64,000 nt of DNA, taken from Alphaproteobacteria bacterium (lineage in GTDB: Bacteria > Pseudomonadota > Alphaproteobacteria > JAJTHO01 > CANGYM01). The notes under the pieces were generated by a model. That model saw only the letters and a list, made by a program, of their open reading frames with translations, did not search any database and was not told the DNA's origin. This document shows positions 3,010 through 53,549 of this stretch, piece by piece. Both the position numbers and the translations under genes were made by a program. The DNA is taken from positions 1,248 through 65,247 of the forward strand of contig CANGYP010000001.1 in assembly GCA_947458235.1 (NCBI GenBank). The letters run 5' to 3'. Position 1 is the first letter of the stretch. Each line of letters starts with the position of its first letter.

Positions 3010-3948
3010 ATGAAAAAACACACAACAAAAAAACAAATGACCCTTGCGTATCCCATTTCCTTTTCTGGTGTGGGGTTGCATACGGGGGATGCCGTAACCT
3101 TGACCCTGAAGCCCGCCCCTGTGAATCATGGGATTGTGTTTCATCGCACGGACCTGAACATCACCATGCCCGCCCATCATGCGTTGGTGGAGCCCTCCCC
3201 CCTATGCACCACGTTGGTGAGTCTTTGCGGCCGCGCCCGTGTGGCCACGGTTGAGCATCTGATGTCTGCCTTGGCTGGATGCCGTGTGGACAATGCTGTC
3301 ATTGAGATTGACGGGGGTGAAATGCCCATCATGGACGGCAGCGCCGCCCCCTTTGTTCAGGCGATTGTTGCAGTGGGGTTGGTCCCTCAGGCGGTCCAGC
3401 GTCGCGCCTATCGCATTTTGCGAGCGGTTCATGTGCATGATGGTGACAAAACCGCCTCTCTGTTGCCCAGCGTTTCACAGGATTTGTCCATCACGTGCCG
3501 TATTGATTTTAACCACGCTGCCATTGGGGCCCAGACCTTCACGCTGGCCTCTTTGGATGACTTTGGGGATTTGATTGCCCGTGCGCGGACCTTTGGTTTT
3601 GAAAAAGATATTGCTACTTTGCGCAAAATGGGCTTGGCCCGTGGCGGCAGTTTGGACAATGCCATTGTTTTCGGCGAAACCCGCGTGTTAAACCCCGAAG
3701 GCATGCGATACGAAAATGAATGTGTGCGTCACAAGGTTCTGGACGCCGTTGGGGATCTGTATCTGGCCGGTTTGCCCTTGGTGGGGGATTTTTATGGCTA
3801 TTGCTCGGGCCACTTTTTAAATTATCGCCTGCTAACAGAGCTGTTTGCCACACCAAACGCCTATGAAGAAATTCTGTGGGGCGCCGATGAGGAGCAAAGC
3901 GCAGCCTTGACCAGTGAAACGGCGGATTTGCATCCCCTGTGGGCCTAA
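3010..3948 (+). CDS. lpxC: UDP-3-O-acyl-N-acetylglucosamine deacetylase
   Basis: QMTLAYPISFSGVGLHTGD, HKVLDAVGDLYLAG and a C-terminal HFLNYRLL-like region are classic LpxC. 312 aa. Confidence 0.9.
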   Translation: MKKHTTKKQMTLAYPISFSGVGLHTGDAVTLTLKPAPVNHGIVFHRTDLNITMPAHHALVEPSPLCTTLVSLCGRARVATVEHLMSALAGCRVDNAVIEIDGGEMPIMDGSAAPFVQAIVAVGLVPQAVQRRAYRILRAVHVHDGDKTASLLPSVSQDLSITCRIDFNHAAIGAQTFTLASLDDFGDLIARARTFGFEKDIATLRKMGLARGGSLDNAIVFGETRVLNPEGMRYENECVRHKVLDAVGDLYLAGLPLVGDFYGYCSGHFLNYRLLTELFATPNAYEEILWGADEEQSAALTSETADLHPLWA

Positions 3949-8143: not shown

Positions 8144-10021
8144 TTACGCCTTCTGGGCCATTTGTTCTTCTGTGGGGGCCCGTTGAGCTTTTGGCAGGCT
8201 GATATAAAACACAGTCCCCTTGCTGCTGGATTCAAACCAAATACGCCCCCCATGCATTTCCACAATTTTTTTGGCTATCGGCAGGCCAATCCCAGCATGC
8301 TCTGTCTGTGCATTCAGGGATTCAAAGAGGGAAAAAATATGGTCTGTATAAATTTTTTCAATGCCCGATCCATTATCCTGCACTTTAATAACCCACTCTT
8401 GTTCGCGCTCTTGACAGGATAATCCCACAATGGGGGGGATGCTGGCATTATGTTCAATCCCATTTTTTATGAGATGATACAAGGCCCTCTTCAGAAATCC
8501 TTCATGGCATGGCATATCAGGAAACAGGCCGAATGTTTTAATGCGGGCACCGCGTTTTTTCACCAAGGGCATCAGGTCTTTCAAAGCGGCCTGAAGAATA
8601 CTCTGCAACGCATGTTCGGGAAAGGGGGGGGATATTTGAATTTGATTATATTCCGTCAGACCTTGCAAACGCTTGAGGCTCAGAGTGGTCCATCGTTTGA
8701 CTTCGGCCAATTTTTTCAGGGCAGACTCTCGCCTCTCTGCATCTTCCAAGGCCACCGTGCTCTGCAAAATGGCCCGCAAAGGATCCGAAAAAATGTGGGT
8801 TAAGCTATGGGAGAGTGTTTGGTATTGTTGTTGCATCCGAAAAAGGACGTCATGATCCTTTTTTTTATCAAAATTCCGCAGATGCTCGGTTAGAAAAATC
8901 GCCTTTTCCCGTGTGTAGTAGACCACCAAGCGCTTCATTTCATCGATCCAATCGGTTTCTTCTAGGTTAACGATGGCATTCAGTCCCGCCTGCTGCCATT
9001 TTTCGGTGTCATCTAACAAGGCACCACCTCTTAACCCGACCAGATAGGTTGCATTAGGATTGCGACTATCGGTTTTTAGATATTCATTCACCACATGATA
9101 CCCACTTTTAGGATAAAATTTGAGGCCGATGAAGGCCATGTTGTACTGTCCCTTCAAAACCATCTGCAGGGCCTCTTCACTGTTGCAGGCGATATCAGGG
9201 GTTATTAAAAAAGCCTTTTCCAAAAGATCAAGAATGCGTTTCATGGCCCCATCATCACCTGTCGCCACCAGAACGCGCCATTTGGATACCAAATCTGGAA
9301 GACGCAAACGTTTGTCAATCAACGATCCTTTTGTTTCGGATGCCTCATAAAAGGCCGTGTTCATGTTGTCTTCTGGGTTCATAAACACGTTTTGTGCATC
9401 ATTGTCTGGATGAAAGCGGCGCAGATGCTCTGGTTCATCCAAGGGGCTCTTGATCGGCTTTAAATTTAACGCTTCAAGACGATCGTCATACAGCTTGCGT
9501 CGTGTTAGACCCGCAGAATTTCCGGGGTTTAAGGCCATGTATTTTTTGACATAATCGGCCAAAGATTTCGTGCTGAAGGGCTTTGTGATATACCCAGAGG
9601 CCCCCTGTCGCATGGCGGTGTTAAAATCGGCACTTATTTGGGAGGATGTAATAATCACAACATAACTTTTGGGATCAAAGTCTTTGATTTTTTTTAATAG
9701 GGCTAGACCAGATACTTTACCTGGAAATGCTAAATCCAAGAAAATAATATCGGGTGCCCCTTGGACAAACAAAGACCATCCCGTCTCTGGGTCATTGGCG
9801 AAGCTCTTTTCACACTCTGGCAAAGCCTGAGAGACAATGGAACGATAGCGCAGATCATCTTCAACAATGAGAATCCGCAGTTTGTCCGTATCTTGAAAGT
9901 TTTTCCCCATGATGTTCCCTATCACACCGTCCAAAAAACAGTGTAACAAGGTTTGATTGACGAGCGGTAAAGACTCATAATGCCCCATACATGGGGGTCT
10001 CACGTCCGCCTTCCTTAACAC
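8144..10021 (-). CDS. Hybrid sensor histidine kinase with two N-terminal receiver-like domains (REC plus REC-like, then HisKA-HATPase); cytoplasmic
   Basis: REC1 is RILIVEDD...IIFLDLAFPG...GYITKPF. The second receiver-like block is VLVATGDD. A divergent H-box LSHSLTHIFSDPLRAI is followed by ATPase N-box HLIKNGIEHN, G1 DNGSGI and G2 GIGLPIAKK. GC is lower than the backbone. Confidence 0.8.
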   Translation of the reverse strand: MLRKADVRPPCMGHYESLPLVNQTLLHCFLDGVIGNIMGKNFQDTDKLRILIVEDDLRYRSIVSQALPECEKSFANDPETGWSLFVQGAPDIIFLDLAFPGKVSGLALLKKIKDFDPKSYVVIITSSQISADFNTAMRQGASGYITKPFSTKSLADYVKKYMALNPGNSAGLTRRKLYDDRLEALNLKPIKSPLDEPEHLRRFHPDNDAQNVFMNPEDNMNTAFYEASETKGSLIDKRLRLPDLVSKWRVLVATGDDGAMKRILDLLEKAFLITPDIACNSEEALQMVLKGQYNMAFIGLKFYPKSGYHVVNEYLKTDSRNPNATYLVGLRGGALLDDTEKWQQAGLNAIVNLEETDWIDEMKRLVVYYTREKAIFLTEHLRNFDKKKDHDVLFRMQQQYQTLSHSLTHIFSDPLRAILQSTVALEDAERRESALKKLAEVKRWTTLSLKRLQGLTEYNQIQISPPFPEHALQSILQAALKDLMPLVKKRGARIKTFGLFPDMPCHEGFLKRALYHLIKNGIEHNASIPPIVGLSCQEREQEWVIKVQDNGSGIEKIYTDHIFSLFESLNAQTEHAGIGLPIAKKIVEMHGGRIWFESSSKGTVFYISLPKAQRAPTEEQMAQKA

Positions 10022-15157: not shown

Positions 15158-16246
15158 ATGATGCTCTATCCCCTTTTGGTATCCCGCCGAAAGTGCCAAC
15201 CCTTGTGTTGGGTTGTGTTTTGGGTGGTGATGGGGGGTCTGTTGATGGGCACTGGGCCTGCTGATGCGGCGCCAAAAGCCCCTGTGGCCCCAACCTCTGC
15301 GGCCCAATCTGTTGATCCGTCGTCGTTTGTGAATGTCTACACCACCGAGGAGTCCCCCCTGTGGGAGGATTTGTTTAAAACCTTTGGGGAAAAAACTGGC
15401 ATCCGCATCCGCTATAGCGTTCAGGATGGGGCGGATATTGTCAAAAAACTCACCGAAGATGGGGATATTCCCAAAGCGGACGCCGTGATCATCCACGGTT
15501 TGCCCGTTTTGTGGCAGGCGGGGGAAAGCGGTTTGTTACAAAAGGCCCCTTCATTGATTCTGGAATCCTCTATTCCCCCCGCACTGCAAGGGGGGGCATG
15601 GTTTGCGTTTGCGCAGCAGGCCCACGTTATTGTTTACGACAAAACCAAATACACCACGCCCCCCAGTGGGGTAAGCAGTTACGAGGCCCTTGCCTCCCCC
15701 ATCTACCAGAGCATGATCTGTTTGTCAGGGGCGAGTGTGCATCAATCTTGGGTGGCATCCATGGTGCAAGCCCACGGCGAAAAGAAAACCCTTGATTGGA
15801 TCAAAGGCCTTCTGGGGAATGTGGCCCGCCCCCCTGCTGGCGGGGATGGGGATCAGATTAAGGATCTTTTGGCTGGACGCTGTGCGCTGGCTGTGGTGGG
15901 GGATGATACAGTCCGTCGCCTGCCGCCCGAGGATCAGGCCAAACTGGACATCATCTATCCCAACGCCGCAGATCGTGGCACCCACATCACAATCACAGGC
16001 GCGGGCGTTGTGAAAAACGCCGCCCGTCGGGCCGAAGCCATAAAACTGATGGAATTTCTGGTCAGTCGCCCCGTGCAAGATCGTCTGGCCAACGAGGCCA
16101 AACAGTATCGCGCAGTGAATGTGATGCAAATCCCCAATCAAAAAAACCCCAATCCCTTTGGATTTCGGGCAGAAGCTTTGGTGCAAGCCACCCTTGGCCC
16201 CTATAGCGACCAAGCTCTGATCTTGATGGACAAAGCGTCATGGTAA
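15158..16246 (+). CDS. Periplasmic substrate-binding protein of an ABC transporter (Fe3+/thiamine-type family 1 SBP)
   Basis: Signal peptide MMLYPLLVSRRK...GPADAAP, then VNVYTTEESPLWEDLF...ADAVIIHGLPVLWQAG, typical of FbpA/TbpA-like SBPs. Substrate cannot be assigned. The start was chosen at the signal-peptide Met. Confidence 0.6.
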   Translation: MMLYPLLVSRRKCQPLCWVVFWVVMGGLLMGTGPADAAPKAPVAPTSAAQSVDPSSFVNVYTTEESPLWEDLFKTFGEKTGIRIRYSVQDGADIVKKLTEDGDIPKADAVIIHGLPVLWQAGESGLLQKAPSLILESSIPPALQGGAWFAFAQQAHVIVYDKTKYTTPPSGVSSYEALASPIYQSMICLSGASVHQSWVASMVQAHGEKKTLDWIKGLLGNVARPPAGGDGDQIKDLLAGRCALAVVGDDTVRRLPPEDQAKLDIIYPNAADRGTHITITGAGVVKNAARRAEAIKLMEFLVSRPVQDRLANEAKQYRAVNVMQIPNQKNPNPFGFRAEALVQATLGPYSDQALILMDKASW

Positions 16247-17319
16247 GCCCACAAAAACGCGCCATTGTGGCCATGTCAGGAGGGGTGGATAGCTCTGTGG
16301 TGGCGGCATTGCTGCACGAACAAGGGTATGACGTGGTGGGCATCACCCTACAACTGTACGATCACGGACAGGCGGTGCAAAAAACCAAAGCCTGCTGCGC
16401 GGGTCAGGATATTCAAGATGCCAAGGCGGTGGCGGACAGAATCGGCTTTCCCCACTATACCTTGGACTATGAAAACCGCTTTCGCCAACAGGTCATTGAT
16501 GATTTTGCCGACAGCTACGTGCGCGGCGAAACGCCCATCCCCTGTATCCGTTGCAATCAAACCGTCAAGTTTCGGGATTTGTTACAAATGGCGCAAGATT
16601 TAAATGGCGATTTTCTGGCCACCGGCCATTATGTCCAGCGCATCGCATCAGGGGGGGAAATCACCATGCACCGCGGGGCCGATCCCGCCAAGGATCAAAG
16701 TTATTTTCTGTTTGCCACAACGCCAGCCCAGCTGTCGTTTTTGCGGTTTCCTTTGGGGGGCATCCCCAAGGTTGAGACACGGGCCATGGCCAAGCGATAC
16801 GGCCTGCCAGTGGCGGAAAAGCCCGACAGTCAAGACATTTGCTTTGTGCCCGATGGTCGGTATGGAGATTTGGTGAAAAAACTGCGTCCAGAATCCATTC
16901 AACCTGGAAATATCGTCCACGTGGATGGCCGCGTTTTGGGGCAGCACGAGGGGATTATTAACTTCACCGTGGGACAACGACGGGGATTGCATATCGGAGG
17001 GGGGGATATTCTGTATGTCATACGCCTAGATCCCGATACGCGCACCGTTGTGGTGGGCCCCAAAGAGGCCTTGGCCCGTCACAGTGTGGCCTTGACGGGG
17101 GTCAACTGGCTTGGCACCTCCCCCGAAAGATCCCACCAGATTGAGGCCAAATGCCGCTACAGCCAAGACCCCGCTCCCGCCACCGTCACCTTTGGGGATA
17201 ACGCGACGGCCACCGTCACCTTTGATGATCCCCAGTATGGCATTGCCCCAGGTCAGGCGTGCGTTTTTTATTCTGGATCCCGCGTTTTGGGCGGGGGTTG
17301 GATTGGTCACGCGGCATAG
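16240..17319 (+). CDS. mnmA: tRNA-specific 2-thiouridylase
   Basis: PP-loop AIVAMSGGVDSSVVAALL with CCAGQDIQDA, CIRCN and DQSYFL. 359 aa. Confidence 0.9.
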   Translation: MVSPQKRAIVAMSGGVDSSVVAALLHEQGYDVVGITLQLYDHGQAVQKTKACCAGQDIQDAKAVADRIGFPHYTLDYENRFRQQVIDDFADSYVRGETPIPCIRCNQTVKFRDLLQMAQDLNGDFLATGHYVQRIASGGEITMHRGADPAKDQSYFLFATTPAQLSFLRFPLGGIPKVETRAMAKRYGLPVAEKPDSQDICFVPDGRYGDLVKKLRPESIQPGNIVHVDGRVLGQHEGIINFTVGQRRGLHIGGGDILYVIRLDPDTRTVVVGPKEALARHSVALTGVNWLGTSPERSHQIEAKCRYSQDPAPATVTFGDNATATVTFDDPQYGIAPGQACVFYSGSRVLGGGWIGHAA

Positions 17320-20688: not shown

Positions 20689-22737
20689 CTACGCCACATC
20701 CCCCATAGTCCCATGAAATGCTTGTTCCTCGGCGCGGCGCATGTCCTCTTCGTATTCGGCTTTACGGGCCTCGATCATAAAGGGGGGCATGGACGGGGCA
20801 GGGGGGTAGTTTAGGCCCATACCATGATCTGGATTATGCACCAAGTGTTTCAATTCAGGATGTTTGAAATAGGCGGGGGTGCTTGCCATAATGGGCCGGT
20901 TCATATTGGCCTGCATCAGAACGATGTGTTGTTTCAGATTGGGTAGGGACATAAAATCCTCTGGCCGAATCAGGGGTTGGCCCTGCAAAGATTTCTGCAT
21001 GTTGCTGGCAAAGGGATTGGTTTGACGGGACAAACCCACGGTGCGGCTTTTGGATTTGGATTCCATGGTCCGCTGGCCCACCATTTCCGAAAACCGTTTG
21101 GCTGTGGTTTCGTTGTTCAGGGGCAAAATCACTTTAGCGGCAGTGGTGGAAATCACGGTTTCCATTTCGTTTTCCCCGTATTTGGCCTTGATCTGGCCCA
21201 AATCCTGACCGATCATCAGGAAACTGACCTTTTGTCCCCGACCCACGGCAGGACCATCAATCAGGGCCTGCAGCTTGGGCATTTGGGGGAACTCATCCAA
21301 AACAAACAACACAGGAAAGGGGCCCACATCCCTGCCATCACGGGTTTTCCCCTTGGGTTTATGGGCCACCAACCATGCGGACATGGCCTCAATCAGCAAT
21401 CCCGTAATCACCCCTAGGGCGCGGGCATCTTCTTGGTTCACACAAATATAAATGGTTACGGGTTTCATTTCCCCTGTTATGGGGTCACGCATACCGCGCA
21501 CATCCATAAAGGAAAAATCACTTTTGGATGTTCTGGCCCGCACGGCACTGTTTTTGAACACAATCAATCCTCCATCCATGGTGGACATGATGGACCCGCG
21601 CTCTTTATCGGGTGTGGCGGCTAAGCTGGTTAACTCCATAACCGCGCGAGGGGCAAACCCGCCAGCGTGGGCTTCGCTGGCGGCATCTTTTAAAAACTCT
21701 GTTACAGGATCATACTGCATGGCCTGCATGGGATTTTTTTTCATCAGCTCTTCTTTTTTCTTTTGCGCCCCCATGGTGGCTTCAGTCATCCAGTCAATAA
21801 TCATGGGGATGCATGCTTCTTGGCCTTGCCATTGCTTGGGGATGCCCTGATAATTGCCCGTTTCACATTTTTGAACGATATAATGGACAAATCCAGCCAA
21901 AGCGGCGCGGGCCTTGGTGGACCAGTGGGGCTCTTTTTCATTTTCCACAATCATAATATTAACAATACGATCCACATACAAATCGCGGTTGGGCCCGAAT
22001 TCGGGAATGCACATGGGGGATAAGGGATTCCAGCGGGGAAAGAAAATACCCTGCTCTGGCTTATCCTGCGCGGCCCATTCCAAACGAAAGCAAAGGCTGT
22101 GTTTGGAGCGATAACCAGATGTTAAATCAAACAATTCTGGCTTCACATCATTCACAATCATGGACACGTTGTCACAGGTCAGAATGGTGGGCACAACCAC
22201 ACTCACCGTTTTACCCGTCCCTGGGGGGGCCACACACAAAACGGAGAGGGTTTCTGGCAATTTCAACAAACGGCCTTTCCATTCCCCAATAACGATGATC
22301 CAGCCCTTATCCAGCAAGCCCATCTCTTTAATATCATCATCACGGGCATAACGGGATGATCCAAAGGTATCATCAATAAAGCTATAGGGGTTCCGCACCA
22401 ACATATAAAACAACAGCAAGCTGGCGGGCAGAAACGTGATGAACATTTCAACAGGCAGACCAAAAATACGCCAGTCGTTAGGAACACCCCCCACATTGCC
22501 AATCCAGTTTAAATGAAATTCATAAAACAGCATGGGGGATAGCATGGTTTCCCAATACGTTCCCAGCCCCATCAAGTTCGGCTTGCTGACCCCATTTTTC
22601 ATCAAATAAAAAAAACTGGCGGAAACGGCCGTTCCCACATACACAATAGAAACAAACCACACAAAGGACTTAAGGATCCACGCTCTGGCCTTTTGCGTTT
22701 CACCAGCATCTTTTTTACGTTGATAGGATAGGGACAT
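20689..22737 (-). CDS. virD4: Type IV secretion / conjugation coupling protein, VirD4/TraG family
   Basis: N-terminal TM helices, Walker A CVAPPGTGKTVSVVVPTIL and Walker B-like VLFVLDEF. 682 aa. Confidence 0.8.
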   Translation of the reverse strand: MSLSYQRKKDAGETQKARAWILKSFVWFVSIVYVGTAVSASFFYLMKNGVSKPNLMGLGTYWETMLSPMLFYEFHLNWIGNVGGVPNDWRIFGLPVEMFITFLPASLLLFYMLVRNPYSFIDDTFGSSRYARDDDIKEMGLLDKGWIIVIGEWKGRLLKLPETLSVLCVAPPGTGKTVSVVVPTILTCDNVSMIVNDVKPELFDLTSGYRSKHSLCFRLEWAAQDKPEQGIFFPRWNPLSPMCIPEFGPNRDLYVDRIVNIMIVENEKEPHWSTKARAALAGFVHYIVQKCETGNYQGIPKQWQGQEACIPMIIDWMTEATMGAQKKKEELMKKNPMQAMQYDPVTEFLKDAASEAHAGGFAPRAVMELTSLAATPDKERGSIMSTMDGGLIVFKNSAVRARTSKSDFSFMDVRGMRDPITGEMKPVTIYICVNQEDARALGVITGLLIEAMSAWLVAHKPKGKTRDGRDVGPFPVLFVLDEFPQMPKLQALIDGPAVGRGQKVSFLMIGQDLGQIKAKYGENEMETVISTTAAKVILPLNNETTAKRFSEMVGQRTMESKSKSRTVGLSRQTNPFASNMQKSLQGQPLIRPEDFMSLPNLKQHIVLMQANMNRPIMASTPAYFKHPELKHLVHNPDHGMGLNYPPAPSMPPFMIEARKAEYEEDMRRAEEQAFHGTMGDVA

Positions 22738-23506
22738 GGCGGGACACTCTCACAGCAACCTAAAAACCATATCGAATTGTATGGAAAATGTCAAGGAAAA
22801 TCAGGAAACCATCATCGCCTCCGGATATGGCTTTTCGCCTGTATTTGATGATGTTTATTTCCAGCCCTGTGATCCAGTGGCGGAATCCCGCTATGTGTTT
22901 ATGAATCATAACTTTCTGCCCCAGCGGTTGAGGGTTACCCCCACCTTCACCATCGGGGAATTGGGATTTGGCAGTGGCCTGAATGCCATAATCACTCTTG
23001 ATTTATGGCTGCGTGTGGCACCAGCGGGCAGCACACTGAGATACTGCGCGGTTGAACAATACCCCCTCAGCCTTGCCCAACTCAGGGTGATAGGAGAGCC
23101 TTGGCAGGCCCTGTTTCCCATGGCCCATAGCCTGCTTCTGTCCCATCATTATCAGGATGCCTGTTCTCAGGCCATCACCATCCCCTTGCAAGACAACAAA
23201 ACTTTTATATTACAGATATTTGTTCAAGATGCGGCCCAAGCCCTGACCCATTGGCCCGCCACAGTGGATGCGTGGTTTTTGGATGGTTTTGCCCCCGCCA
23301 AAAATCCAACAATGTGGCATCCTTCGGTTTTATCAGGGGTGGGGCAGAACACCTTTTGGGGGGGAACCTTTGCGACTTTTACAGCAGCATCCGATGTGCG
23401 GCGGGGCTTACAGGCCGCAGGGTTTCACGTGTTCCGCACCAAAGGCTATGGCCAAAAACGGCACCTATGCTGGGGCTATCGTTTTTCAAATCCTGGGAAA
23501 TTTTGA
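22736..23506 (+). CDS. MnmC-type tRNA mnm5U methyltransferase domain protein (standalone MnmC2/DUF752-like)
   Basis: ELGFGSGLN SAM-binding motif and WFLDGFAPAKNPTMW match the MnmC methyltransferase half. No FAD oxidoreductase half is present. Confidence 0.55.
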   Translation: MAGHSHSNLKTISNCMENVKENQETIIASGYGFSPVFDDVYFQPCDPVAESRYVFMNHNFLPQRLRVTPTFTIGELGFGSGLNAIITLDLWLRVAPAGSTLRYCAVEQYPLSLAQLRVIGEPWQALFPMAHSLLLSHHYQDACSQAITIPLQDNKTFILQIFVQDAAQALTHWPATVDAWFLDGFAPAKNPTMWHPSVLSGVGQNTFWGGTFATFTAASDVRRGLQAAGFHVFRTKGYGQKRHLCWGYRFSNPGKF

Positions 23507-24126
23507 CGCAATTTAAACAAATCAGGATTCAAGGATTCGGGCTGCTGCAAAGACGTCAAGTGGGTGCGAATCGGACTGCCCACAGGATCCACATAGGCCC
23601 ACCCCATCAGTTTAAGTGTTTTTTTATCAAACAAAAAATACAGGGGCGGCTGGTCGGGGGATTGGGGCAACACCCGCAAAAACGTCCGCGTTTCATCATG
23701 GGCGACTTGAAATGTATAGTCCGTGCGGTTGCGCAGCACTACGGGGTCCTGCAACAAAAACGACAACGGCAGATCATCAATGGAAATATAGGTCCGCTGG
23801 CCCAAATTCAAATCATAAAAAACCGCTGTCCCTGATTTCACAATCAGATATTGTCGCGTTGACATTTTCAGGTGCATTTGGTTGGGACGCTTCCAGTAAA
23901 GCGTGCCGGTTTGATCGGGTTTGCCTTCTTCCAGCTGGATATAGGTGGCCTGAACTTGTTTCAGGGCATTGAGGTTGTGTTCAATGCGCGAGAGGATCTC
24001 TGAATCCTGCGTCCAAGCCAACACTGGATTGTCAATAGCATCCCCCGCATCGGCGGCAAAGGCCGCGTGAAACCTTTGGGAAAGGGTCAAAAGCATAAAA
24101 CAAACAACAACCAGTCTCATGGCCAT
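23476..24126 (-). CDS. lolA: Periplasmic lipoprotein carrier LolA-like protein
   Basis: Signal peptide, then QVQATYIQ...GTLYWKRPNQMHLK, as in LolA LWVKRPN. About 216 aa. Confidence 0.65.
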   Translation of the reverse strand: MAMRLVVVCFMLLTLSQRFHAAFAADAGDAIDNPVLAWTQDSEILSRIEHNLNALKQVQATYIQLEEGKPDQTGTLYWKRPNQMHLKMSTRQYLIVKSGTAVFYDLNLGQRTYISIDDLPLSFLLQDPVVLRNRTDYTFQVAHDETRTFLRVLPQSPDQPPLYFLFDKKTLKLMGWAYVDPVGSPIRTHLTSLQQPESLNPDLFKLRQNFPGFEKR

Positions 24127-24243
24127 CCTAAATGTGTCGTGACACTTTACGTTAAAGCATACTCCCCACTATAATGCGATGGTTTTCATAAGGGAGGAAG
24201 AAACACTAGGTAGGGCTCTCCTTTCATGCTAAATCCTTGATTC

Positions 24244-26556
24244 ATGATGACGCATCGATGGATTTTAGGGTTTGTTGTGTTGCTTTTCTCTGCCTTCTCA
24301 GCCGCGGAGGCCAAGACGTGCTTGGTGCTTTCTGGCGGAGGCGCCTTGGGGATTGCCCATGTGGGTGTTTTGAAAGTTTTAGAGGAACAGCGCGTTCCCA
24401 TCGATTGCATCGCTGGCACCAGCATGGGTGCCATTGTGGGGGGGTTGTATGCCTCGGGTTACTCCGCGCAGGAACTGGAAACCCTAGTAGAAACCTCTCA
24501 ATGGGCTACATTATTCAGCGAGCCTAGTGAGCGGCGTGATTTAACCTTTCAGCGCAAGCGGGATGATCTAAACTTTTTAATGGATTTTAAAATCGGCATC
24601 AACGACGAAGGCAAGGTTGCCCTGCCCAAAGGGGCCATTTTGGGCAATCAGATTGATCTGGCGTTTTTGGAATTCACCCTGCGCAGTCATGGGATTACTG
24701 ATTTTGATCGGTTGCCCATTCCCTTTCGCGCTGTGGCCTCGGATGTGGAAACGGGAAATCCTGTGATTTTGGGGCATGGGTCCTTGGTTCGGGCCATGCG
24801 GGCCAGCATGTCTGTGCCTGGGGTTTTTGCCCCTGTAGAGATTGATGGAAAATTTTTGGTGGATGGGGGCGCATCCAACAACCTGCCCATGGATGTAGCC
24901 AGAGCCATGGGGGCCAACCACCTGATTGTGGTTCATATTCCCACGCTTCTTAAGGAGTATTCCGAACTAACCTCTGCCCTAGACGTGGCTGGACAGATGA
25001 TTTCCATTTTGATCAAGCAAAACGAGGATCGGCAACTCACCACCCTGACCGTTCAGGATGTTTACATTCGTCCTGATATTGACGGGTTTAGCTCCAGCGA
25101 TTTTGCACAGGCTAAAGCGATCATCAAGCCCGGCATCAAGGCTGCGCAGGACCAACACAAGGCTTTGGCGCCTTTGTCAGTGTCCCCTGCAGACTACGCC
25201 GCCCTTCGCGCCCGTCAATACCGCCCCGTACCCCCAAACCCCCTTATTGAGTTTGTGGAACTAAAGAATGATTCAAAACTCAGTGATGAAATCCTGTGGC
25301 AAAACATGTCCATAAAATCTGGCGAACCCCTATCCATGCAAGTTTTGCAGCAGGATTTATCCCGTCTTTATGGGACAGGACATTTTGAAAGCGTCACTTT
25401 TGATATTGTGGATCGCTCTGGGCAAAAAGCGGGCGTTATTGTATCCGCCACAGACAAAGCCCAAAAAGACCATGGAAACGTTGGGGTAACGCCCAAGGCT
25501 CCATCTCCTACCACCGTATCCGAGGCGATACCCTTCTCTGAAAAAGGCCTTTCCATCGCCGCACAGCCCAAAGCATGGTCAATGGATAACCTGCGGTTTG
25601 GCCTGAATTTAGAGGATAATTTTGAAGGCAACACATCCTATAATCTCTCCACTCGTTATTCGCAAACCCTGTTGAATAATTTAGGCGGCGAGCTAAATCT
25701 AGACGGCCAAGTGGGGGAAAACAACAAAGCCAAAGCCGAATGGTACCAACCCTTAAGTGCTGAAAAAGGCCCCTTCGTGGCCGCCAGTGGGGGGTACGAG
25801 GGGCAAAATATCCCCATTTTGCAAAACAAACAGGAGATTGCCAAATACCGCCTAACCCGCTACACCGCCCAAGCGGCTGTGGGCACAACGCTGCTGGATA
25901 ACGACGGCGAGGCCCGTGTAGGCCTTGAGCGGGGCTATGGGTACGCGGACCTGAAAACAGGCGATCGCCCCTCGGGCATCGACAATGACTTTGATATTGG
26001 AGATGCCTTTGTGTCCATTGATTATGACACCTTAGATCAAATCAATTTTCCCAAAAAAGGGAAATTTGGCAACATAACCTTTCGCAAAGCCACGGAAACC
26101 CTAGGCTCCACAAGCCGTTATGAGCAGGGGCAAGGGCGCATGACATGGGTAGAAAGTTTAGATGACAAAAACACCTTTATTTTCACCAGCAGCTTGGATC
26201 TCTCGCTGGAAGATGACGCCCCCATCAATGGCCAATTTTTGGGGGGTGGATTCCTGAATTTTTCGGGTTACCAAAAAGACCAAATCCTAAGCCCTAACAT
26301 CAGCAGCAATCGCCTTCTGTACATCCACCAGCTGTATGGCAACAGCGAAGACCTCTTTCATCTGCCTGTTTATGTGGGGGGATCGTTTGAGGTCGGGGAT
26401 TATCAGGAACAGCACCAAGATTTGATGAGCGATCCCATCGCCTCTGGATCGGGATTTTTTGGCACGGACACTATCTTTGGCCCCGTATACTTGGGCTACG
26501 GCCAGTCCGAAGGGGGAATGCGGTCCGTCTATCTATTCTTGGGACGCTCTTTTTAA
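24244..26556 (+). CDS. Patatin-like phospholipase fused to a C-terminal Omp85/surface-antigen beta-barrel (PlpD-like type Vd autotransporter)
   Basis: Signal peptide, oxyanion CLVLSGGGALG, GTSMGA nucleophile and DGGASNN catalytic Asp. A long Gly/Tyr/Asn-rich beta-strand region ends in the C-terminal FLGRSF, typical of OM beta-barrels. Confidence 0.75.
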   Translation: MMTHRWILGFVVLLFSAFSAAEAKTCLVLSGGGALGIAHVGVLKVLEEQRVPIDCIAGTSMGAIVGGLYASGYSAQELETLVETSQWATLFSEPSERRDLTFQRKRDDLNFLMDFKIGINDEGKVALPKGAILGNQIDLAFLEFTLRSHGITDFDRLPIPFRAVASDVETGNPVILGHGSLVRAMRASMSVPGVFAPVEIDGKFLVDGGASNNLPMDVARAMGANHLIVVHIPTLLKEYSELTSALDVAGQMISILIKQNEDRQLTTLTVQDVYIRPDIDGFSSSDFAQAKAIIKPGIKAAQDQHKALAPLSVSPADYAALRARQYRPVPPNPLIEFVELKNDSKLSDEILWQNMSIKSGEPLSMQVLQQDLSRLYGTGHFESVTFDIVDRSGQKAGVIVSATDKAQKDHGNVGVTPKAPSPTTVSEAIPFSEKGLSIAAQPKAWSMDNLRFGLNLEDNFEGNTSYNLSTRYSQTLLNNLGGELNLDGQVGENNKAKAEWYQPLSAEKGPFVAASGGYEGQNIPILQNKQEIAKYRLTRYTAQAAVGTTLLDNDGEARVGLERGYGYADLKTGDRPSGIDNDFDIGDAFVSIDYDTLDQINFPKKGKFGNITFRKATETLGSTSRYEQGQGRMTWVESLDDKNTFIFTSSLDLSLEDDAPINGQFLGGGFLNFSGYQKDQILSPNISSNRLLYIHQLYGNSEDLFHLPVYVGGSFEVGDYQEQHQDLMSDPIASGSGFFGTDTIFGPVYLGYGQSEGGMRSVYLFLGRSF

Positions 26557-26582: not shown

Positions 26583-28034
26583 TTGGAAAACGGGTTAGAG
26601 TGCCTTATGCATTTTTCACAGTATCACACTGATGGGTTTTATGATGAGCTGTTCCTGAGCGATGGGCAGCCCAGACCCGAAGCCGCCCCTCTGATTGCCC
26701 AGATCAATGCCCTCTCCAGCAAGGATTTACGGCGTCGCCAACGGGCGGCCGAGCTGGCCATGTTCCAGCAGGGGATTACCTTTAGCGTTTACGGCGACCG
26801 TCAGGGACACGAAAAAATCATTCCCTTTGATATTTTGCCCCGCATCATTACGGGGCAAACGTGGGCGGTGTTAGAGCGGGGATTAAAACAGCGCATCTTG
26901 GCCTTGAACACTTTTATTCACGATATTTATCATGACCAGAACATTTTGCGCGATGGGGTCATTCCCCGTGAGTTGGTTCTGTCCAGTGCCTGTTACCTGC
27001 CTGCGTGTCAGGGATTAACACCCCCTAAAAACACATGGGCCCATATTGCGGGCATTGATTTGGTGCGGGATGAACAGGGGATGTTTTACGTTTTGGAGGA
27101 TAACGTGCGCTGCCCATCGGGCATTTCCTATGTTCTGGAAAACCGCACCATGCAAAAGCGCACCTTTCCGCGGGCATTTGAGGCTATGCGCGTGCGCCCC
27201 GTATCCAACTATCCCAACCAGCTTTACCAGATGCTGCGCCGCCTTTCCAGCGAAGCGGACCCCACCGTGGTGGTTCTAACCCCTGGTATGTACAATTCTG
27301 CCTATTTTGAACATGCCTTTTTGGCCCAACAAATGGGGGTCTTTTTGGCTGAAGGGGCAGATTTGACGGTATCGGGGGGCTACGTCTGGTTGAAAACCAC
27401 ACGGGGCCTGAAAAAGGTGGATGTGATTTACCGCCGCATAGATGATATCTTTCTGGATCCTGTGGCGTTTCGTCCAGACTCCTTGTTGGGGGTTGCGGGG
27501 CTGATGGACTGTTATCGGCGGGGCACGGTGGCCCTTGCCAATGCCCCTGGTACGGGGGTTGCGGATGATAAAGCGATTTATGCCTATGTCCCCGCCATGA
27601 TCCGCTATTATTTGGGGGAAGAGGCCATCATTCCCAACGTCCCTACCTATCTGTGTTCGGATGATGCCCAGCGGCAGTATGTTTTGGACAATCTGGAAAC
27701 TCTGGTGGTGAAGGCTGTGAATCTTTCTGGGGGTTATGGCATGTTGATTGGCCCCAAATCCACGGCAGAAGAGCGCAACACCTTTGCCGAGGCCATTCGT
27801 ACCAACCCACGGGATTACATTGCCCAGCCCACGCTGTCCCTGTCCCGCGCCCCCACCCTGACACCTGAGGGGATTGAGGGACGCCACGTAGATTTTCGGC
27901 CCTATGTGCTATCCAGCGACGAGGTTTTTGTTTTGCCTGGGGGCTTGACTCGTGTGGCGTTGGTGAAGGGGTCGCTGGTGGTCAATTCCTCCCAAGGGGG
28001 CGGCAGCAAAGATACATGGATTTTGGAGGACTAA
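26583..28034 (+). CDS. Circularly permuted type-2 ATP-grasp protein (COG2308, DUF404/DUF407)
   Basis: 483 aa. The HFSQYHTDGFYDEL start and conserved blocks YVLEDNVRCPSG and YVPAMIRYYLGEEAIIPNVPTY are characteristic of the family. Confidence 0.8.
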   Translation: MENGLECLMHFSQYHTDGFYDELFLSDGQPRPEAAPLIAQINALSSKDLRRRQRAAELAMFQQGITFSVYGDRQGHEKIIPFDILPRIITGQTWAVLERGLKQRILALNTFIHDIYHDQNILRDGVIPRELVLSSACYLPACQGLTPPKNTWAHIAGIDLVRDEQGMFYVLEDNVRCPSGISYVLENRTMQKRTFPRAFEAMRVRPVSNYPNQLYQMLRRLSSEADPTVVVLTPGMYNSAYFEHAFLAQQMGVFLAEGADLTVSGGYVWLKTTRGLKKVDVIYRRIDDIFLDPVAFRPDSLLGVAGLMDCYRRGTVALANAPGTGVADDKAIYAYVPAMIRYYLGEEAIIPNVPTYLCSDDAQRQYVLDNLETLVVKAVNLSGGYGMLIGPKSTAEERNTFAEAIRTNPRDYIAQPTLSLSRAPTLTPEGIEGRHVDFRPYVLSSDEVFVLPGGLTRVALVKGSLVVNSSQGGGSKDTWILED

Positions 28035-28038
28035 ACCA

Positions 28039-28971
28039 ATGCTCAGCCGTGTGGCCAACGCTGTTTACTGGATGAGTCGTTATTTGGAACGCGCCGATAA
28101 CGTGGCCCGTTTTATTCACGTCAACATTCACCTGATGCTGGATTTGGGATTAGAGCATGACAATGGACGCTGGGCCCCTTTGGTGGCAGCGTCGGGTGAT
28201 GATGAGGATTTTCGCCGTCGTTACGATGATCATAATGAAAAAAACGTCCTGCATTTTTTGACGTTTGACGAGGAAAATCCCAATTCCATTCTGTCTTGCA
28301 TTCACCGCGCTAGAGAAAATGCCCGAACCGTGAGAGAAATTTTGTCTTCGGATTTATGGATGGCCATCAATGATGTGCATCATCTAACCCAAAAACAGGC
28401 CAGACGTCGCAAAATTGGGGATTTGCAGGATTTTTATTTGTCCATCCGCCGCGCGGGCTATGTGTTTACGGGCCTGCTCGAAGATACCATGACCCACGGC
28501 GAGGCATGGCATTTTGCCGATTTAGGCCGCATGCTAGAGCGTGCCGATAAAACGGCGCGTATTTTGGATGTGAAGTACTTTCTGCTGTTGCCCAGTTTAG
28601 AGTATTTTGATTCCCCCTATGATGCGGTGGAATGGAGCGCGGTTTTAAAATCCGTCAGTGCCTTTGAAATGTACCTCAAGCAACACCACACCATCAATTA
28701 CAAAAATGTGGCAGATTTTTTGATTTTTCATCCCTCATTCCCTCGATCCATCCTACGCTGCACGCATCAGGCGGCGCGGTCTTTACACAGCATTGTGGCC
28801 GCCACCGCCAGCGATACCGATATTGAACAGTCCATGTCCACCCTGCGGTCTTTTCTGGCCGATGCCACCATCGAGAGCGTTTTAAACCACGGCATGCATG
28901 AATTTATCGATACCTTTCAAACCCATAGCAACACGTTGGATCGGGACATTAGCCAAACATTTTTTGCATGA
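28039..28971 (+). CDS. Alpha-E domain protein (COG2307, DUF403)
   Basis: Starts MLSRVANAVYWMSRYLERADN, the hallmark alpha-E N-terminus. Lies 5 nt downstream of the ATP-grasp gene. Confidence 0.8.
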   Translation: MLSRVANAVYWMSRYLERADNVARFIHVNIHLMLDLGLEHDNGRWAPLVAASGDDEDFRRRYDDHNEKNVLHFLTFDEENPNSILSCIHRARENARTVREILSSDLWMAINDVHHLTQKQARRRKIGDLQDFYLSIRRAGYVFTGLLEDTMTHGEAWHFADLGRMLERADKTARILDVKYFLLLPSLEYFDSPYDAVEWSAVLKSVSAFEMYLKQHHTINYKNVADFLIFHPSFPRSILRCTHQAARSLHSIVAATASDTDIEQSMSTLRSFLADATIESVLNHGMHEFIDTFQTHSNTLDRDISQTFFA

Positions 28972-44373: not shown

Positions 44374-46263
44374 TCACGCCTTGGTGGCGACCACTCTCGC
44401 TTTGGGCAAGAATAAAGAGACCGTAGTGCCACGACCTTCCGCGCTTTGAATGTGCAGCTTACCCTGATGCATGTCCATAAGTTTTTGCACCAAGGGTAGG
44501 CCCAACCCCGTGCCTTCGTGCCGGCGGGCATAGGAATTATCAATTTGGGTGAACGGTTTCAGGGCTTTGTCTATGTCCTCTCCCCGCATGCCCACCCCAG
44601 TGTCAGTGCACGCAATCATCACGGGGAAATCATTTTCTGGATCATAGTGACAGGACAAAGTCACAGTACCTTTTTCATGGGTAAATTTTACGGCGTTAGA
44701 GAGAACATTCATCACCACCTGTTTCAAGGCCCGTTCATCGCCATAAATAATGGGCAGGGTGCCTGATATATCCTCAATTAACGAGATTTTTCCAGCCTCG
44801 GGCCGACCCCGAACAATCCTGATGGCAGATTTCAGAACGTTTTCTAGATTCATTTTGGATTCATATAAATGAAATTGACCAGCCTCAATTTTTGAGAGAT
44901 CCAAAATATCATTGATAATGCTTAGCAAATGATCCCCGCTTTCTTTAATGTCCAGCGTGTATTCCAAATACTTGTCATGCCCCATGGGGCCAAAGGTTTG
45001 GCTGTGCATGATGCTGGAAAACCCGATGATGGCATTGAGGGGGGTGCGGAGTTCATGGCTCATGTTCGCCAAAAATTCGGATTTTGATCGGCTGGCGGAT
45101 TCGGCTTGTTCTTTGGCCAAAATTAATTCACGTTCTTCTTGGCGGCGCTTGGTCACATCCCGCATAAAAGCACAATTAAACTCTTTATTTTTGTAAAATA
45201 AATAGTTTTCCGTAAATTCGATGATTGTTCTATGGCCATCGTTGTTGGCCATAATTTCCTCGGTCGTGCAAGCCCCTTGGGTTTTCAGCAAATTCCAATG
45301 ATCTCGCCATTGATCCAGACTATGAAAATCTCTCAGGCCATGAATGGTGCTGCGGAGCAAGTCCTCTTTGGGGCGATCCATCAATTGGCATGCCGCATCG
45401 TTAACATAGAGAATTTTTCCAAACGCATTGGTCCACATCACACCCTCTGATGCGCGATCCAAAACGAATTGTGTGATGCTCAGGGTTTCTTCGTACTGTT
45501 TGCGCTCGGTAATATCCTGCACAATGCCGTTAATAAACAAATCATCGGCGTTTACCTTAGATCCCATACCCGTTTGCAGGTGGACATAACGCAAATGGTG
45601 ATCCTGTGTTAACAGCGCATGGTCAATGGCCGTATTTTTGTTGTGCATCAAACTATCGTCAAAAAAGCTCTCCACAAGGGCTTTGTCAGCTTTGGGAACA
45701 AGGCGCATGTATTCCTCCAAGCTATAGGGACGCCGCTGGTGGGGATCCAAATCCAAAATGCGCTTGGCTTCTTCGGAAAAATAAAGGTTTTTCAGGGCGC
45801 GATCATAATACCAATACCCCAACTGCGCGATGCGCTGGGCCGTCATCCAGCGGGATTCCCCATCACGGAGTTTTTTTAGATTTTGATAGGCTCGAAAAAT
45901 GTACCGTATGCGATGCTGCAACACAATCCAGTTGATGGGTTTGGTGATAAAATCCGTAGCACCTGCATCGTAGCAAGCGTTGGCCATGTCCATATCCTGC
46001 ATCCCTGTGATCATGATAATGGGCACCTCTTCGCCAGTCCCGCCTTCGGCGCGGATGGCTTGACAGCATTCTATGCCGTTCATCACGGGCATCATAATAT
46101 CTAACAGAATGATAGAGGGATGTACGTTACGAAAGGCGGACAGAGCCTCCTCCCCATTGTCCACCGCAATGCATTTAAATCCCAGTTTTTCTAGAGATTT
46201 ACTCATTAACGCCCGTGACACCTCTTCGTCTTCGGCGATTAAAATCAAATGATCTCGATCCAT
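44374..46263 (-). CDS. Hybrid sensor histidine kinase with N-terminal receiver domain and PAS region (REC-PAS-HisKA-HATPase)
   Basis: REC is LILIAEDEE...ILLDIMMPVMNG...ITKP. H-box LANMSHELRTPLNAI, N-box NAVKFT, G1 DTGVGM and G2 GTGLGL are present. GC is patchily low. Confidence 0.8.
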   Translation of the reverse strand: MDRDHLILIAEDEEVSRALMSKSLEKLGFKCIAVDNGEEALSAFRNVHPSIILLDIMMPVMNGIECCQAIRAEGGTGEEVPIIMITGMQDMDMANACYDAGATDFITKPINWIVLQHRIRYIFRAYQNLKKLRDGESRWMTAQRIAQLGYWYYDRALKNLYFSEEAKRILDLDPHQRRPYSLEEYMRLVPKADKALVESFFDDSLMHNKNTAIDHALLTQDHHLRYVHLQTGMGSKVNADDLFINGIVQDITERKQYEETLSITQFVLDRASEGVMWTNAFGKILYVNDAACQLMDRPKEDLLRSTIHGLRDFHSLDQWRDHWNLLKTQGACTTEEIMANNDGHRTIIEFTENYLFYKNKEFNCAFMRDVTKRRQEERELILAKEQAESASRSKSEFLANMSHELRTPLNAIIGFSSIMHSQTFGPMGHDKYLEYTLDIKESGDHLLSIINDILDLSKIEAGQFHLYESKMNLENVLKSAIRIVRGRPEAGKISLIEDISGTLPIIYGDERALKQVVMNVLSNAVKFTHEKGTVTLSCHYDPENDFPVMIACTDTGVGMRGEDIDKALKPFTQIDNSYARRHEGTGLGLPLVQKLMDMHQGKLHIQSAEGRGTTVSLFLPKARVVATKA

Positions 46264-50878: not shown

Positions 50879-52849
50879 TTATCCCCTGCGCCATCCCCAC
50901 AGCAACAAAGCCCCCATCAGGGCAGCGAGGACGGGGGGCGTCCATGGCCATACTTCGCCTTGGCCCATGGTGATGGCCGAGGGACGATCAAAGATCAAGG
51001 TTTGGGATGATAAACGCTCTGACAATCCCTGATCAAAGGTGATGTTGAGGGGGGCGCTGGGATCATCACGATATCGACCGCTGTTGTGTTTGGCCAACAG
51101 GGCGCCCGAGGGGGGAACGGGGGTCCACTCCGCCGGCGGTCCCATGTCAAAGGGGATAGGAATCAACGTTTGTTGAACCCGAACGGCCCACAGACCCGCA
51201 CGGTTTAGGGGGGTGCGATACACCCCATCCCCCTCTGGGGTCCAAGGTTGCCATAATCCCTCTGGACGATAAAGGGATACGGTACCCTTCAGCGTTCCTC
51301 TGGGGGTGCAGGTCAATGTGGCCTTATCTTGTTGGCAGGTCATGGGGGGGGCCTCTAAATCGGGCTCCCGCAATAACCAGTGCATCAAACGGCGCATCAT
51401 GGGGTTAAAGGGGGGTGGTTCTTCCCCTTGAGGGCGGCGCCATGTCCATACATCATCCGTGGCCACCCATGCCATGCGTCCATGTTGCGGGGTGTCGGGC
51501 CAGATACTCAACACAGGGATTTTTTCGGGGGTTTCCAGCAGGGCCTCTGCCTCTGCTGGTAATATCGCTGGCAGGTATCCGCGCAGTTGTGGAAAGGTCT
51601 TGCCCAAAAACGGCTGGGTGATGGGGTGATCCTGCCCCAAACGGGGGGTGATGGGGGCATCCTGATAGCCTTGGGGGGATAGGGTTAAACGTAACATATC
51701 CTGCAAAGCTACCAGCAAACTGTCGTTTTTTGCGCCTTCGGGCCCCGTCATGATCAGAAACGCGCCGCCTTTTTGAATAAAAGCCCGCAGCCCCTGCAGG
51801 TGAATGGGCTGTAACAATCCCAAATTGGCGTAACGATCCATGACAATGACATCAAAATCATGGATGCGGTTTAAAAACAGCTCATCCACAGGAAAGGGTA
51901 TCAGGGCCATTTCATCTGGCGGCGTGAAATCCACGCTGTCCATGCGGCGCAAAATAGAAAAATGGACCAGATCCATGTTGGGGTCTTGTTTAAACAAACT
52001 CCGAAAGGCCCGTGTGGAGGGATGCGAGGATCCCGAAACCATCATCACCCGCCACCGATCCCGAAACACCGTCAGGGTGAAAATGGCGGCATTGTTTTGC
52101 AGTGTCGCTTCCTTATCCAGCGGCGGCGTAGCCAAAAGATAGGGGGTGCGCCCAGGGCGATCGGTATTGAGGGGGATTTGGGTTTTTTCCCCATTGCGTA
52201 CCCGATACGTAACCTGCTGATCACCGTGGTACAGATTCAGGGGAATCTCGGACCCCTCGGGCTGTGTGGTGTCCCGCACCGTAACGGACAGGGCAAAGGG
52301 CTTGCCCACCAATTGATAGGATGAGGATTTCTCCAAAACCACCGAACGATCTGGCGCATTGCGAAAGGCGCTGAGGACGTGGATGGGTACCGTTGCCCGA
52401 AAGGTCGATAAATCCGCTTTGGCATCATGCCACAGGGTGTCACTGATAATCACCACACCGGCCAAACGATCTTGCGGCACGCTTTGCAGGGCGGCTTTTA
52501 GGGGGGGCAGGACCCTCGTGCCTTGATCCGTCTGGCTCAAGGGAAAGGATTGCAACGTGGCTTTCTCCCCCACGGCATTTTTCAGGGTTTTCAGCCACAG
52601 GGCTTGGGCCTGTGTATCCGCGCTGGCCGTTTGATCCTGCAACACCACAATGGTTTTGGGGGACGCTTTGGGGGCAGGTTTTAACAGGGTCACCTGAGAA
52701 AGCATGGCCACCAACACAGCCACCGCCCCCAAGCGGGCCCAGCTTTTTCGGCCCCACAGCACCACCAGTGCGCTGAGCATCACCACCACCACACTCAGGG
52801 CCACCGAGCCCTCCTCCCATGACAGGGTATATCCCCCCAGATCAAGCAT
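50879..52849 (-). CDS. Large membrane-anchored protein with N-terminal double-TM domain and C-terminal TM (TIGR02226/DUF4159-like), function unknown
   Basis: Two hydrophobic helices at the N-terminus (VALSVVVVMLSALVVLW and LGAVAVLVAMLSQVTLL), a roughly 550-aa soluble region and a C-terminal helix ALMGALLLWGW. Overlaps the response-regulator gene stop by a few nt. Confidence 0.55.
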   Translation of the reverse strand: MLDLGGYTLSWEEGSVALSVVVVMLSALVVLWGRKSWARLGAVAVLVAMLSQVTLLKPAPKASPKTIVVLQDQTASADTQAQALWLKTLKNAVGEKATLQSFPLSQTDQGTRVLPPLKAALQSVPQDRLAGVVIISDTLWHDAKADLSTFRATVPIHVLSAFRNAPDRSVVLEKSSSYQLVGKPFALSVTVRDTTQPEGSEIPLNLYHGDQQVTYRVRNGEKTQIPLNTDRPGRTPYLLATPPLDKEATLQNNAAIFTLTVFRDRWRVMMVSGSSHPSTRAFRSLFKQDPNMDLVHFSILRRMDSVDFTPPDEMALIPFPVDELFLNRIHDFDVIVMDRYANLGLLQPIHLQGLRAFIQKGGAFLIMTGPEGAKNDSLLVALQDMLRLTLSPQGYQDAPITPRLGQDHPITQPFLGKTFPQLRGYLPAILPAEAEALLETPEKIPVLSIWPDTPQHGRMAWVATDDVWTWRRPQGEEPPPFNPMMRRLMHWLLREPDLEAPPMTCQQDKATLTCTPRGTLKGTVSLYRPEGLWQPWTPEGDGVYRTPLNRAGLWAVRVQQTLIPIPFDMGPPAEWTPVPPSGALLAKHNSGRYRDDPSAPLNITFDQGLSERLSSQTLIFDRPSAITMGQGEVWPWTPPVLAALMGALLLWGWRRG

Positions 52850-53549
52850 GATCGGCCACCAGACGATATCCCTGATGACGCACAGTTTGCAGGTATTGTG
52901 GCGTTTTGGGATGAGGTTCAATTTTTTGGCGCAAACGATTCAGATGAACATCTATGGTACGGGATAGGCTGGTTTCCTCTAACCCCAAGGCCGTTTGCAG
53001 GGCCAGACGGGACACGGGTTGCCCGCCCGCCCGCACCAAAACATCCATCAAGGTTTTTTCTGCGGGCGTTAAGGCAATGGGCCCCCCATCCATCCCCAGC
53101 AGGGTTTGCATGGTGCTTTGATAGGTTAACCGTCCCAAACGCAGAGCAGGGGAGGGGGCTTCCTCCAGACTATTGCCCGCCCGCTTTAAAATATTTTGAA
53201 TGCGCAACAACAGCTCCTCAGGCACAAAGGGCTTGGTCAAATAATCATCGGCCCCCAACGACAATCCCGCAATGCGATCGGCAGATTCCCCCTTGGCCGT
53301 TAACATCAACACTGGCAGCATATTGTCTTGTCCCCGAAGCTGCGCCAGAAAATCCCGCCCCGTTTGATAGGGCATCATGTCATCCAAAATGATCAAGTGA
53401 CAACGATATTCAGGGGCCTTCAGGATCGCATCGGCCTCCGTCGGGTGGGCGGCGGTGCTGACGGTATAGCCATGCTGGCGCAAAAACCGCTGCAACAACA
53501 GGCGGATGCGCTGATCATCATCCACAATCAACAGGTGAAAAGACGACAT
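52842..53549 (-). CDS. OmpR-family two-component response regulator (REC plus winged helix)
   Basis: HLLIVDDDQRIRLLLQRFL...LIILDDMMP...LMLTAKGE...DDYLTKPF, then a C-terminal wHTH YLQTVRHQGYRL. Confidence 0.85.
   Translation of the reverse strand: MSSFHLLIVDDDQRIRLLLQRFLRQHGYTVSTAAHPTEADAILKAPEYRCHLIILDDMMPYQTGRDFLAQLRGQDNMLPVLMLTAKGESADRIAGLSLGADDYLTKPFVPEELLLRIQNILKRAGNSLEEAPSPALRLGRLTYQSTMQTLLGMDGGPIALTPAEKTLMDVLVRAGGQPVSRLALQTALGLEETSLSRTIDVHLNRLRQKIEPHPKTPQYLQTVRHQGYRLVADHA

Follow-up and report, generated by a model that had tools for sequence, protein, structure and literature searches.

The patatin-like phospholipase PlpD of Pseudomonas aeruginosa (PA3339; PDB 5FQU, 5FYA) is the prototype of the PL-Omp85 family, also called the 'type Vd' family. 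Hanson et al. 2024 found PlpD to be a homodimer with an exclusively periplasmic patatin domain, observed that a ΔplpD strain accumulates many phospholipids, and proposed a role for PlpD in outer-membrane lipid homeostasis (PMC11116518). In the same work, the PlpD lid (residues 89-126) was found to move between strand 1 of the two barrels, with lid residues I117/S118 being cross-linked with F410-L415 (PMC11116518). FplA of Fusobacterium nucleatum, a PL-Omp85 protein with phospholipase A1 (PLA1) activity, was reported as surface-exposed and, in some strains, cleaved, a topology that is now disputed (PMC5724010, PMC11116518). Here we describe a gene of this family located at positions 24244-26556 (+) of a 64-kb window (the whole stretch of DNA analysed, from contig CANGYP010000001.1 of assembly GCA_947458235.1). 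Judging from its domains, motifs and predicted fold, its product is an intact PL-Omp85 protein and a homolog of P. aeruginosa PlpD, although its source is an uncultured freshwater alphaproteobacterium and not a pathogen.

The gene is complete, with 770 codons and a stop codon and an intact reading frame, and its product follows the same order as PlpD, i.e., signal peptide, patatin domain, helical linker, one POTRA domain, and 16-strand Omp85 barrel. Pfam Patatin (PF01734; residues 27-219, E 2e-33) and Pfam Omp85 (residues 482-684, E 6e-11) both matched above their curated cutoffs, and a POTRA match between them likewise exceeded its own. An AlphaFold2 model built on the family alignment was confident, with a mean predicted local distance difference test (pLDDT) score of 84 and a predicted template modelling (pTM) score of 0.77. 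The patatin domain is 47% identical to that of PlpD, superposes on it at 1.3 Å, and resembles it more closely than it does other patatins. The two proteins further share the Ser-Asp dyad, a C-terminal Phe, the LRxGL motif of strand 1, and a beta-signal-like lid triplet at positions 117-119. Unlike PlpD, the protein has Leu for Arg in the GGGxRG motif, an IGI lid triplet where PlpD has ISF, and 44 extra, partly disordered residues between POTRA and barrel in a protein of 770 aa; none of these departures removes it from the PL-Omp85 family. FplA shares the domain architecture and catalytic dyad but is far more distant, with a published identity to PlpD of 23%. The original prediction for this locus had proposed a single 770-aa protein with exactly these coordinates, a PlpD-type fusion, the motifs GGGALG, GTSMG and DGG, and a beta-rich C-terminal region ending in an aromatic residue. 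All of this held up: the three domains exceed their Pfam cutoffs, each motif falls in invariant alignment columns, and the C-terminal region is an Omp85 barrel ending in Phe770.

Comparison with relatives gave an amino-acid identity of 0.78, while codon positions 1 and 2 together were 0.87 and position 3 only 0.58 identical. This gap between protein and third-position identity indicates that plpD is a real gene under purifying selection and not a chance open reading frame (ORF). The gene also appears to be one more intact member of a very large known family rather than a new kind. About 8,000 homologs were scored in sequence searches, and the top 120 were nearly all full-length at about 720-820 aa. 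A search of 1.84 billion cluster representatives with only the POTRA and barrel half (residues 322-770) retrieved 357 at E ≤ 1e-30 and 1,225 at E ≤ 1e-10. Besides shorter, apparently truncated entries, the best 150 of these matches were almost all 720-790 aa long, and the match was always C-terminal, so that those proteins share the PL-Omp85 architecture. NCBI and JGI already contain a 99%-identical protein, named 'NTE family protein', and the nearest genomes, at 77-84% identity, are metagenome-assembled genomes of uncultured freshwater Alphaproteobacteria from Lake Mendota and a reservoir. PL-Omp85 proteins are common in free-living bacteria, e.g., Azospirillum, Syntrophales, and Desulfobulbaceae.

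The N-terminus carries a putative Sec signal peptide (residues 1-23; 24244..24312, +), reading MMTHRWILGFVVLLFSAFSAAEA followed by K. This call was made by inspecting the N-terminus by eye, not with a dedicated predictor: MMTHR, WILGFVVLLFSAFS, and AAEA before the K were taken as the n, h, and c regions, the last with an AxA cleavage site. The AlphaFold2 model places a helix at residues 4-17, and hydrophobic N-termini occur throughout the family in the homolog alignment. Cys26 was considered as a lipoprotein lipobox cysteine and rejected, as the preceding A-K-T does not suit a lipobox and residue 26, which alternates between Cys and Gly in the family, lies within the first strand of the patatin fold.

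The patatin-like phospholipase domain with its linker helices spans residues 24-320 (24313..25203, +). Motif invariance was scored on a 36-sequence alignment spanning 39-83% identity, and residue frequencies were counted on 229 sampled full-length family members. The block II nucleophile elbow G58-T-S60-M-G62 (24415..24429, +), with the catalytic Ser60, and block IV D207-G-G209 (24862..24870, +), with the catalytic Asp207, both fall in invariant columns, as do the glycines that flank the two residues; neither catalytic residue was lost on careful alignment. GTSMG was found in 200 of the 229 homologs, and block III is present as A187-S-M-S-V-P192 (pattern A187-S-x-x-x-P192). Two more distant alphaproteobacterial homologs, P0009 and P0011 (L040), have 22 additional residues inserted directly ahead of the catalytic DGG block. 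The block I oxyanion-hole motif G31-G-G-A-L-G36 (24334..24351, +) has Leu35 in place of the usual Arg or Lys. This substitution is the sole support for the idea of a catalytically dead or decaying gene, whose product would be a pseudo-enzyme or a purely structural outer-membrane protein. We find that idea hardly credible: the reading frame is intact, Ser60, Asp207 and blocks II to IV are invariant, and no other part of the protein is as well conserved as the patatin domain, whose identity is 87% within the close clade and 52% for distant members. Moreover, third-position identity at conserved four-fold codons is 0.54, well below the protein identity of 0.78.

Leu occurs at position 35 in 31 of the 229 full-length members (14%), including Azospirillum, and GGGALG is fixed throughout the alphaproteobacterial subclade to which Azospirillum also belongs. 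Reading Arg35→Leu as a sign of inactivation was therefore rejected, and on its distribution Leu35 is a stable subfamily trait and not decay. The Arg of the oxyanion motif is thought, from the cPLA2 and patatin literature, to bind the phosphate head group. A subfamily of altered specificity might follow, in which loss of this charge would let the enzyme use acyl lipids that are neutral or lack phosphorus (ornithine, betaine, and glyco-lipids, or lysolipids) instead of phospholipids. The fixation of GGGALG in the clade and its presence in 31 members would fit such a lineage trait better than decay, and the source organisms are freshwater Alphaproteobacteria, a group known to use phosphorus-free membrane lipids. 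Nevertheless, we regard this explanation as improbable, given that the lid and all other parts of the active site are conserved, and that Met, His and Thr are also seen at position 35 among family members, which suggests a tolerant position. Somewhat less probable still is its fuller form, in which a Leu35 subfamily with a long, partly disordered tether would be a functional PL-Omp85 variant that has lost phosphate-head-group recognition, remodels phosphorus-free lipids in freshwater Alphaproteobacteria, and might work with the divergent LolA-family gene described below. The recurrent Arg→Leu oxyanion variant is a possible handle for substrate-specificity studies in the PL-Omp85 family.

The lid segment (residues 89-134; 24508..24645, +), placed by alignment to 5fqu, contains the beta-signal-like triplet I117-G118-I119, which aligns with PlpD I117-S118-F119; the family pattern is hydrophobic-G/S-hydrophobic. 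Numbering coincides through the lid, with PlpD F102, V113, I117, S118, and F119 corresponding to F102, M113, I117, G118, and I119 here, and the AlphaFold2 model forms a three-residue strand exactly at 117-119. On the barrel side, strand 1 of this protein (L450-R-F-G-L454) aligns with PlpD L411-R-L-G-L415, the longer PlpD segment F410-L411-R412-L413-G-L415 being equivalent to N449-L450-R451-F452-G453-L454. The conservation of both the lid triplet and the strand-1 motif means that the features underlying the periplasmic, lid-gated mechanism are conserved here. Their retention in a distant environmental alphaproteobacterial member is mild independent support for a family-wide lid-barrel interaction.

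A domain search between the patatin and barrel parts returned exactly one POTRA domain (residues 335-403; 25246..25452, +). The Pfam match to PF07244 covers residues 335-398 and scores 24.9 bits against a cutoff of 21.3, and the model shows one beta-alpha-alpha-beta-beta unit, with strands at 337-343, 383-391, and 394-403 and helices at 348-353 and 365-377. POTRA and barrel are separated by a clade-specific insertion of 44 aa (residues 404-447; 25453..25584, +), identified from the alignment and the model. This insertion is missing from most family members, and in the close clade it is present but only 35% identical. In the AlphaFold2 model its residues 407-432 are disordered (pLDDT below 50), and an extra low-confidence strand is placed at 434-440. 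Other clades have low-complexity insertions elsewhere in POTRA, and the region thus tolerates insertions.

The Omp85 beta-barrel, which begins with the strand 1 described above, occupies residues 448-770 (25585..26553, +), and the model gives the expected 16 strands between residues 448 and 768. Loop L6 (strands 11-12, residues 655-680; 26206..26283, +) carries G668-G-F-x-N-x-S674-G-Y, the equivalent of the Omp85 VRGY/F motif, in which G668, G669, S674, and G675 are invariant. The C-terminal beta-signal S762-V-Y-L-F-L-G-R-S-F770 (26527..26553, +) has Y763, G767, and F770 invariant, and a C-terminal Phe is found in 195 of the 229 homologs, the protein here ending in YLFLGRSF.

Taken with the PlpD data, these features suggest the following mechanism. 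The precursor would be exported by Sec and cleaved after Ala23, and the β-barrel assembly machinery (BAM) would recognise the C-terminal beta-signal (LFLGRSF) and insert the 16-strand barrel into the outer membrane, with the POTRA and patatin domains left facing the periplasm in what is probably a homodimer. Docking of the amphipathic lid (residues 89-134, including I117-G-I119) on barrel strand 1 (L450-R-F-G-L454) would gate access to the active site, and the cell's own outer-membrane lipids would be trimmed from the periplasmic side, so that the physiological role would be outer-membrane lipid homeostasis and not toxin export. We consider a PL-Omp85 protein with this periplasmic, lid-gated, homeostatic mechanism the best explanation of the locus, at a rough probability of 0.62. 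Its direct basis is the architecture, the catalytic and structural motifs, the fold matches, the family membership, and the purifying selection, and its context is a housekeeping chromosomal region of a diderm that makes lipopolysaccharide (LPS), with LpxC in the window. Periplasmic topology, dimerisation, PLA1 activity, and homeostatic role would carry over to this protein from the prototype PlpD.

Several points weigh against this reading. Topology and homeostatic role rest on one study of one prototype, PlpD, from which a patatin domain lying next to POTRA and a lid paired with strand 1 are likewise transferred to this protein. The original PlpD work reportedly described a released fragment. 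Leu35 in place of Arg/Lys may mean a substrate preference different from that of PlpD, the 44-aa insertion would lengthen the POTRA-barrel tether in a way that has no counterpart in PlpD, and the gene neighbourhood is kept only within the close clade. Finally, Casasanta et al. 2017 found FplA to be surface-exposed and proteinase-K-sensitive in E. coli and F. nucleatum (PMC5724010).

The last point bears on the view of this protein as a classical type Vd autotransporter, in which barrel and POTRA would translocate the patatin domain to the surface, where, displayed or cleaved off, it would attack the membranes of hosts or competitors as a phospholipase A. The architecture is that for which type Vd was defined, both accessibility to proteinase K and activity on whole E. 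coli cells were reported for FplA (PMC5724010), and the disordered 26-residue stretch 407-432 might conceivably provide a tether or a site for cleavage. We nevertheless hold this view unlikely. In P. aeruginosa and E. coli, Hanson et al. 2024 saw no secreted PL domain, traced protease access to outer-membrane permeability, and, on the periplasmic side, trapped disulfides linking PL to POTRA and lid to barrel (PMC11116518). In Galleria larvae, neither purified PlpD nor purified FplA proved toxic, and proven type V systems have beta-helical passengers, from which a folded alpha/beta hydrolase of 31 kDa differs (PMC11116518). The patatin domain here, with its close superposition on PlpD, is such a compact alpha/beta hydrolase and not the extended beta-helix or coiled coil of a type V passenger. 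Furthermore, the family is abundant in free-living environmental bacteria, and the window comes from a biosynthetically competent, free-living-type genome (PurL, LeuA, PheA, AroK, LpxC). Of the original prediction of a PlpD-like type Vd autotransporter, then, the PlpD architecture stands, whereas its secreted or surface-exposed role as a host-interaction or competition factor belongs to a 2010-2017 model that has since been contradicted (PMC11116518). We would caution that the label 'secreted type Vd autotransporter / virulence factor' carries into annotations a model at odds with the best prototype data.

Other described systems share parts of this protein's build. Compared with the Omp85 insertases TamA and BamA, the protein is only about 13-15% identical, adds an enzymatic N-terminal domain, has one POTRA, and is without an adjacent partner gene such as tamB; its score against the BamA equivalog is 36.7 bits, far from the cutoff of 297. 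TamA has three POTRA domains and BamA five. For the homeostatic role preferred here, OMPLA/PldA, a dimeric outer-membrane phospholipase in lipid homeostasis, is a functional analogue (PMC11116518). Its fold is unrelated, however, lacking patatin and POTRA domains and any sequence similarity, and its active site acts on outer-leaflet lipids. The OMPLA barrel has 12 strands. The patatin effectors ExoU, VipD, and VpdC, injected through type III or type IV secretion systems (T3SS, T4SS), share the patatin fold and the G-x-S-x-G / D-G dyad, but ExoU and VipD match only residues 19-105 (E 4e-5 to 1e-4), and the VpdC model scores 47.7 bits against a cutoff of 1000. These effectors have neither a Sec signal nor a barrel, carry C-terminal domains of their own, and need host cofactors.

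The original prediction had also drawn on a VirD4 gene in the same organism to argue for host interaction, an argument to which we give no weight. VirD4 is encoded at 20689-22737 (-), as identified by Pfam, and no other T4SS gene was found within about 10 kb on either side, making it an orphan core gene in a housekeeping region. Since VirD4 is an orphan, and since T4SS substrates are not built from a Sec signal peptide and an Omp85 barrel, it is uninformative for plpD, and delivery of the PL-Omp85 protein by a T4SS was rejected on these grounds. In the relatives L002, L004, and L006, VirD4 is 94-95% identical at the amino-acid level, as against 70-73% for MnmC2, 86% for LolA, and 78-79% for PlpD. 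Its third-codon identity to relatives is only 0.72-0.75, which points to unusually strong purifying selection and not to recent transfer. The VirD4 start codon overlaps the start of the divergent MnmC2 gene by 2 nt. The latter (22736-23506, +) encodes an MnmC2 methyltransferase domain that stands alone, without the flavin adenine dinucleotide (FAD) oxidoreductase half (NCBIfam tRNA_MNMC2, 204 bits, with the cutoff at 136), which indicates a putative split MnmC arrangement. MnmA is encoded 5 kb upstream of it (16240-17319, +).

A LolA-family gene lies at 23476-24126 (-), 117 bp upstream of plpD on the opposite strand, much as the original prediction had placed lolA; its Pfam LolA score is 39.9 bits against a cutoff of 23.6, while its score against the NCBIfam lolA equivalog falls below the cutoff. 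The VirD4-MnmC2-LolA-PlpD block is kept in four close relatives (L002, L004, L005, and L006). It is absent from L003, which carries a 77%-identical homolog, and from the distant P0009, P0056, P0011, and P0010; the distant gene contexts inspected numbered five. A conserved, operon-like functional association of lolA and plpD was accordingly rejected, the block being absent from L003 and from distant homologs. The neighbours of homologs do include further envelope and lipid genes, namely LpxC by P0011 and CFA (cyclopropane fatty acid) synthase, DUF1365, and NlpE by P0009, which, together with LolA here, is suggestive, if anecdotal, of an envelope theme around PL-Omp85 homologs.

Directly downstream of plpD are two genes, one for a circularly permuted ATP-grasp protein (26583-28034, +) and one for an Alpha-E domain protein (28039-28971, +). 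Because this pair is missing from the same position in the four syntenic relatives, it looks like a strain-variable insertion. No terminator was found in the 26-bp gap between plpD and the ATP-grasp gene. Co-transcription of plpD with the pair was nevertheless rejected, and the adjacency taken as coincidental, given the absence of the pair from all syntenic relatives.

Turning to the start of plpD, the gene opens with ATGATG, and its true start may be the second ATG, at 24247, because the proteins of relatives begin with MTHRF. No obvious ribosome-binding site was seen on inspection directly upstream of the ATGATG. A strong Shine-Dalgarno-like sequence, AAGGGAGGAA, occurs at 24190-24199 (+), about 46 nt upstream of the plpD ATG and too distant to serve it. 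Within the 117-bp divergent lolA/plpD intergenic region there is a candidate sigma-70-like promoter, TTTACG-18-TATAAT, with 10/12 consensus matches (24146..24175, +). This consensus match is weak evidence for a promoter, since nine such sites were observed in the scanned region against 6.1 expected.

The wider window is, from its gene content, an ordinary chromosomal housekeeping region of a biosynthetically competent, LPS-making diderm and not of a reduced intracellular parasite. It holds genes for LpxC (3010-3948), PheA, AroK, BipA, PurL, MnmA, FtsZ, UDG, UvrD, LeuA, FabF, and acetate kinase, as well as a ribosomal protein cluster with EF-Tu and EF-G. Despite that cluster, Rfam at gathering threshold and ARAGORN returned no tRNA, tmRNA, or Rfam family anywhere in the 64 kb, and a regulatory RNA or tRNA near plpD was rejected on this basis. 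Two long ORFs, one of 680 aa (50879-52921, -) and one of 362 aa (55907-56995, -), matched nothing in Pfam at E ≤ 1e-3. The 680-aa ORF and the end of an OmpR-type response regulator gene (52842-53549) overlap, and the 362-aa ORF sits between HemY/LapA-like and HemD-like genes. Two further proteins of about 625 aa each, encoded at 8144-10021 (-) and 44374-46263 (-), are arranged receiver-first, with a receiver domain at the N-terminus and a histidine-kinase ATPase domain after it.

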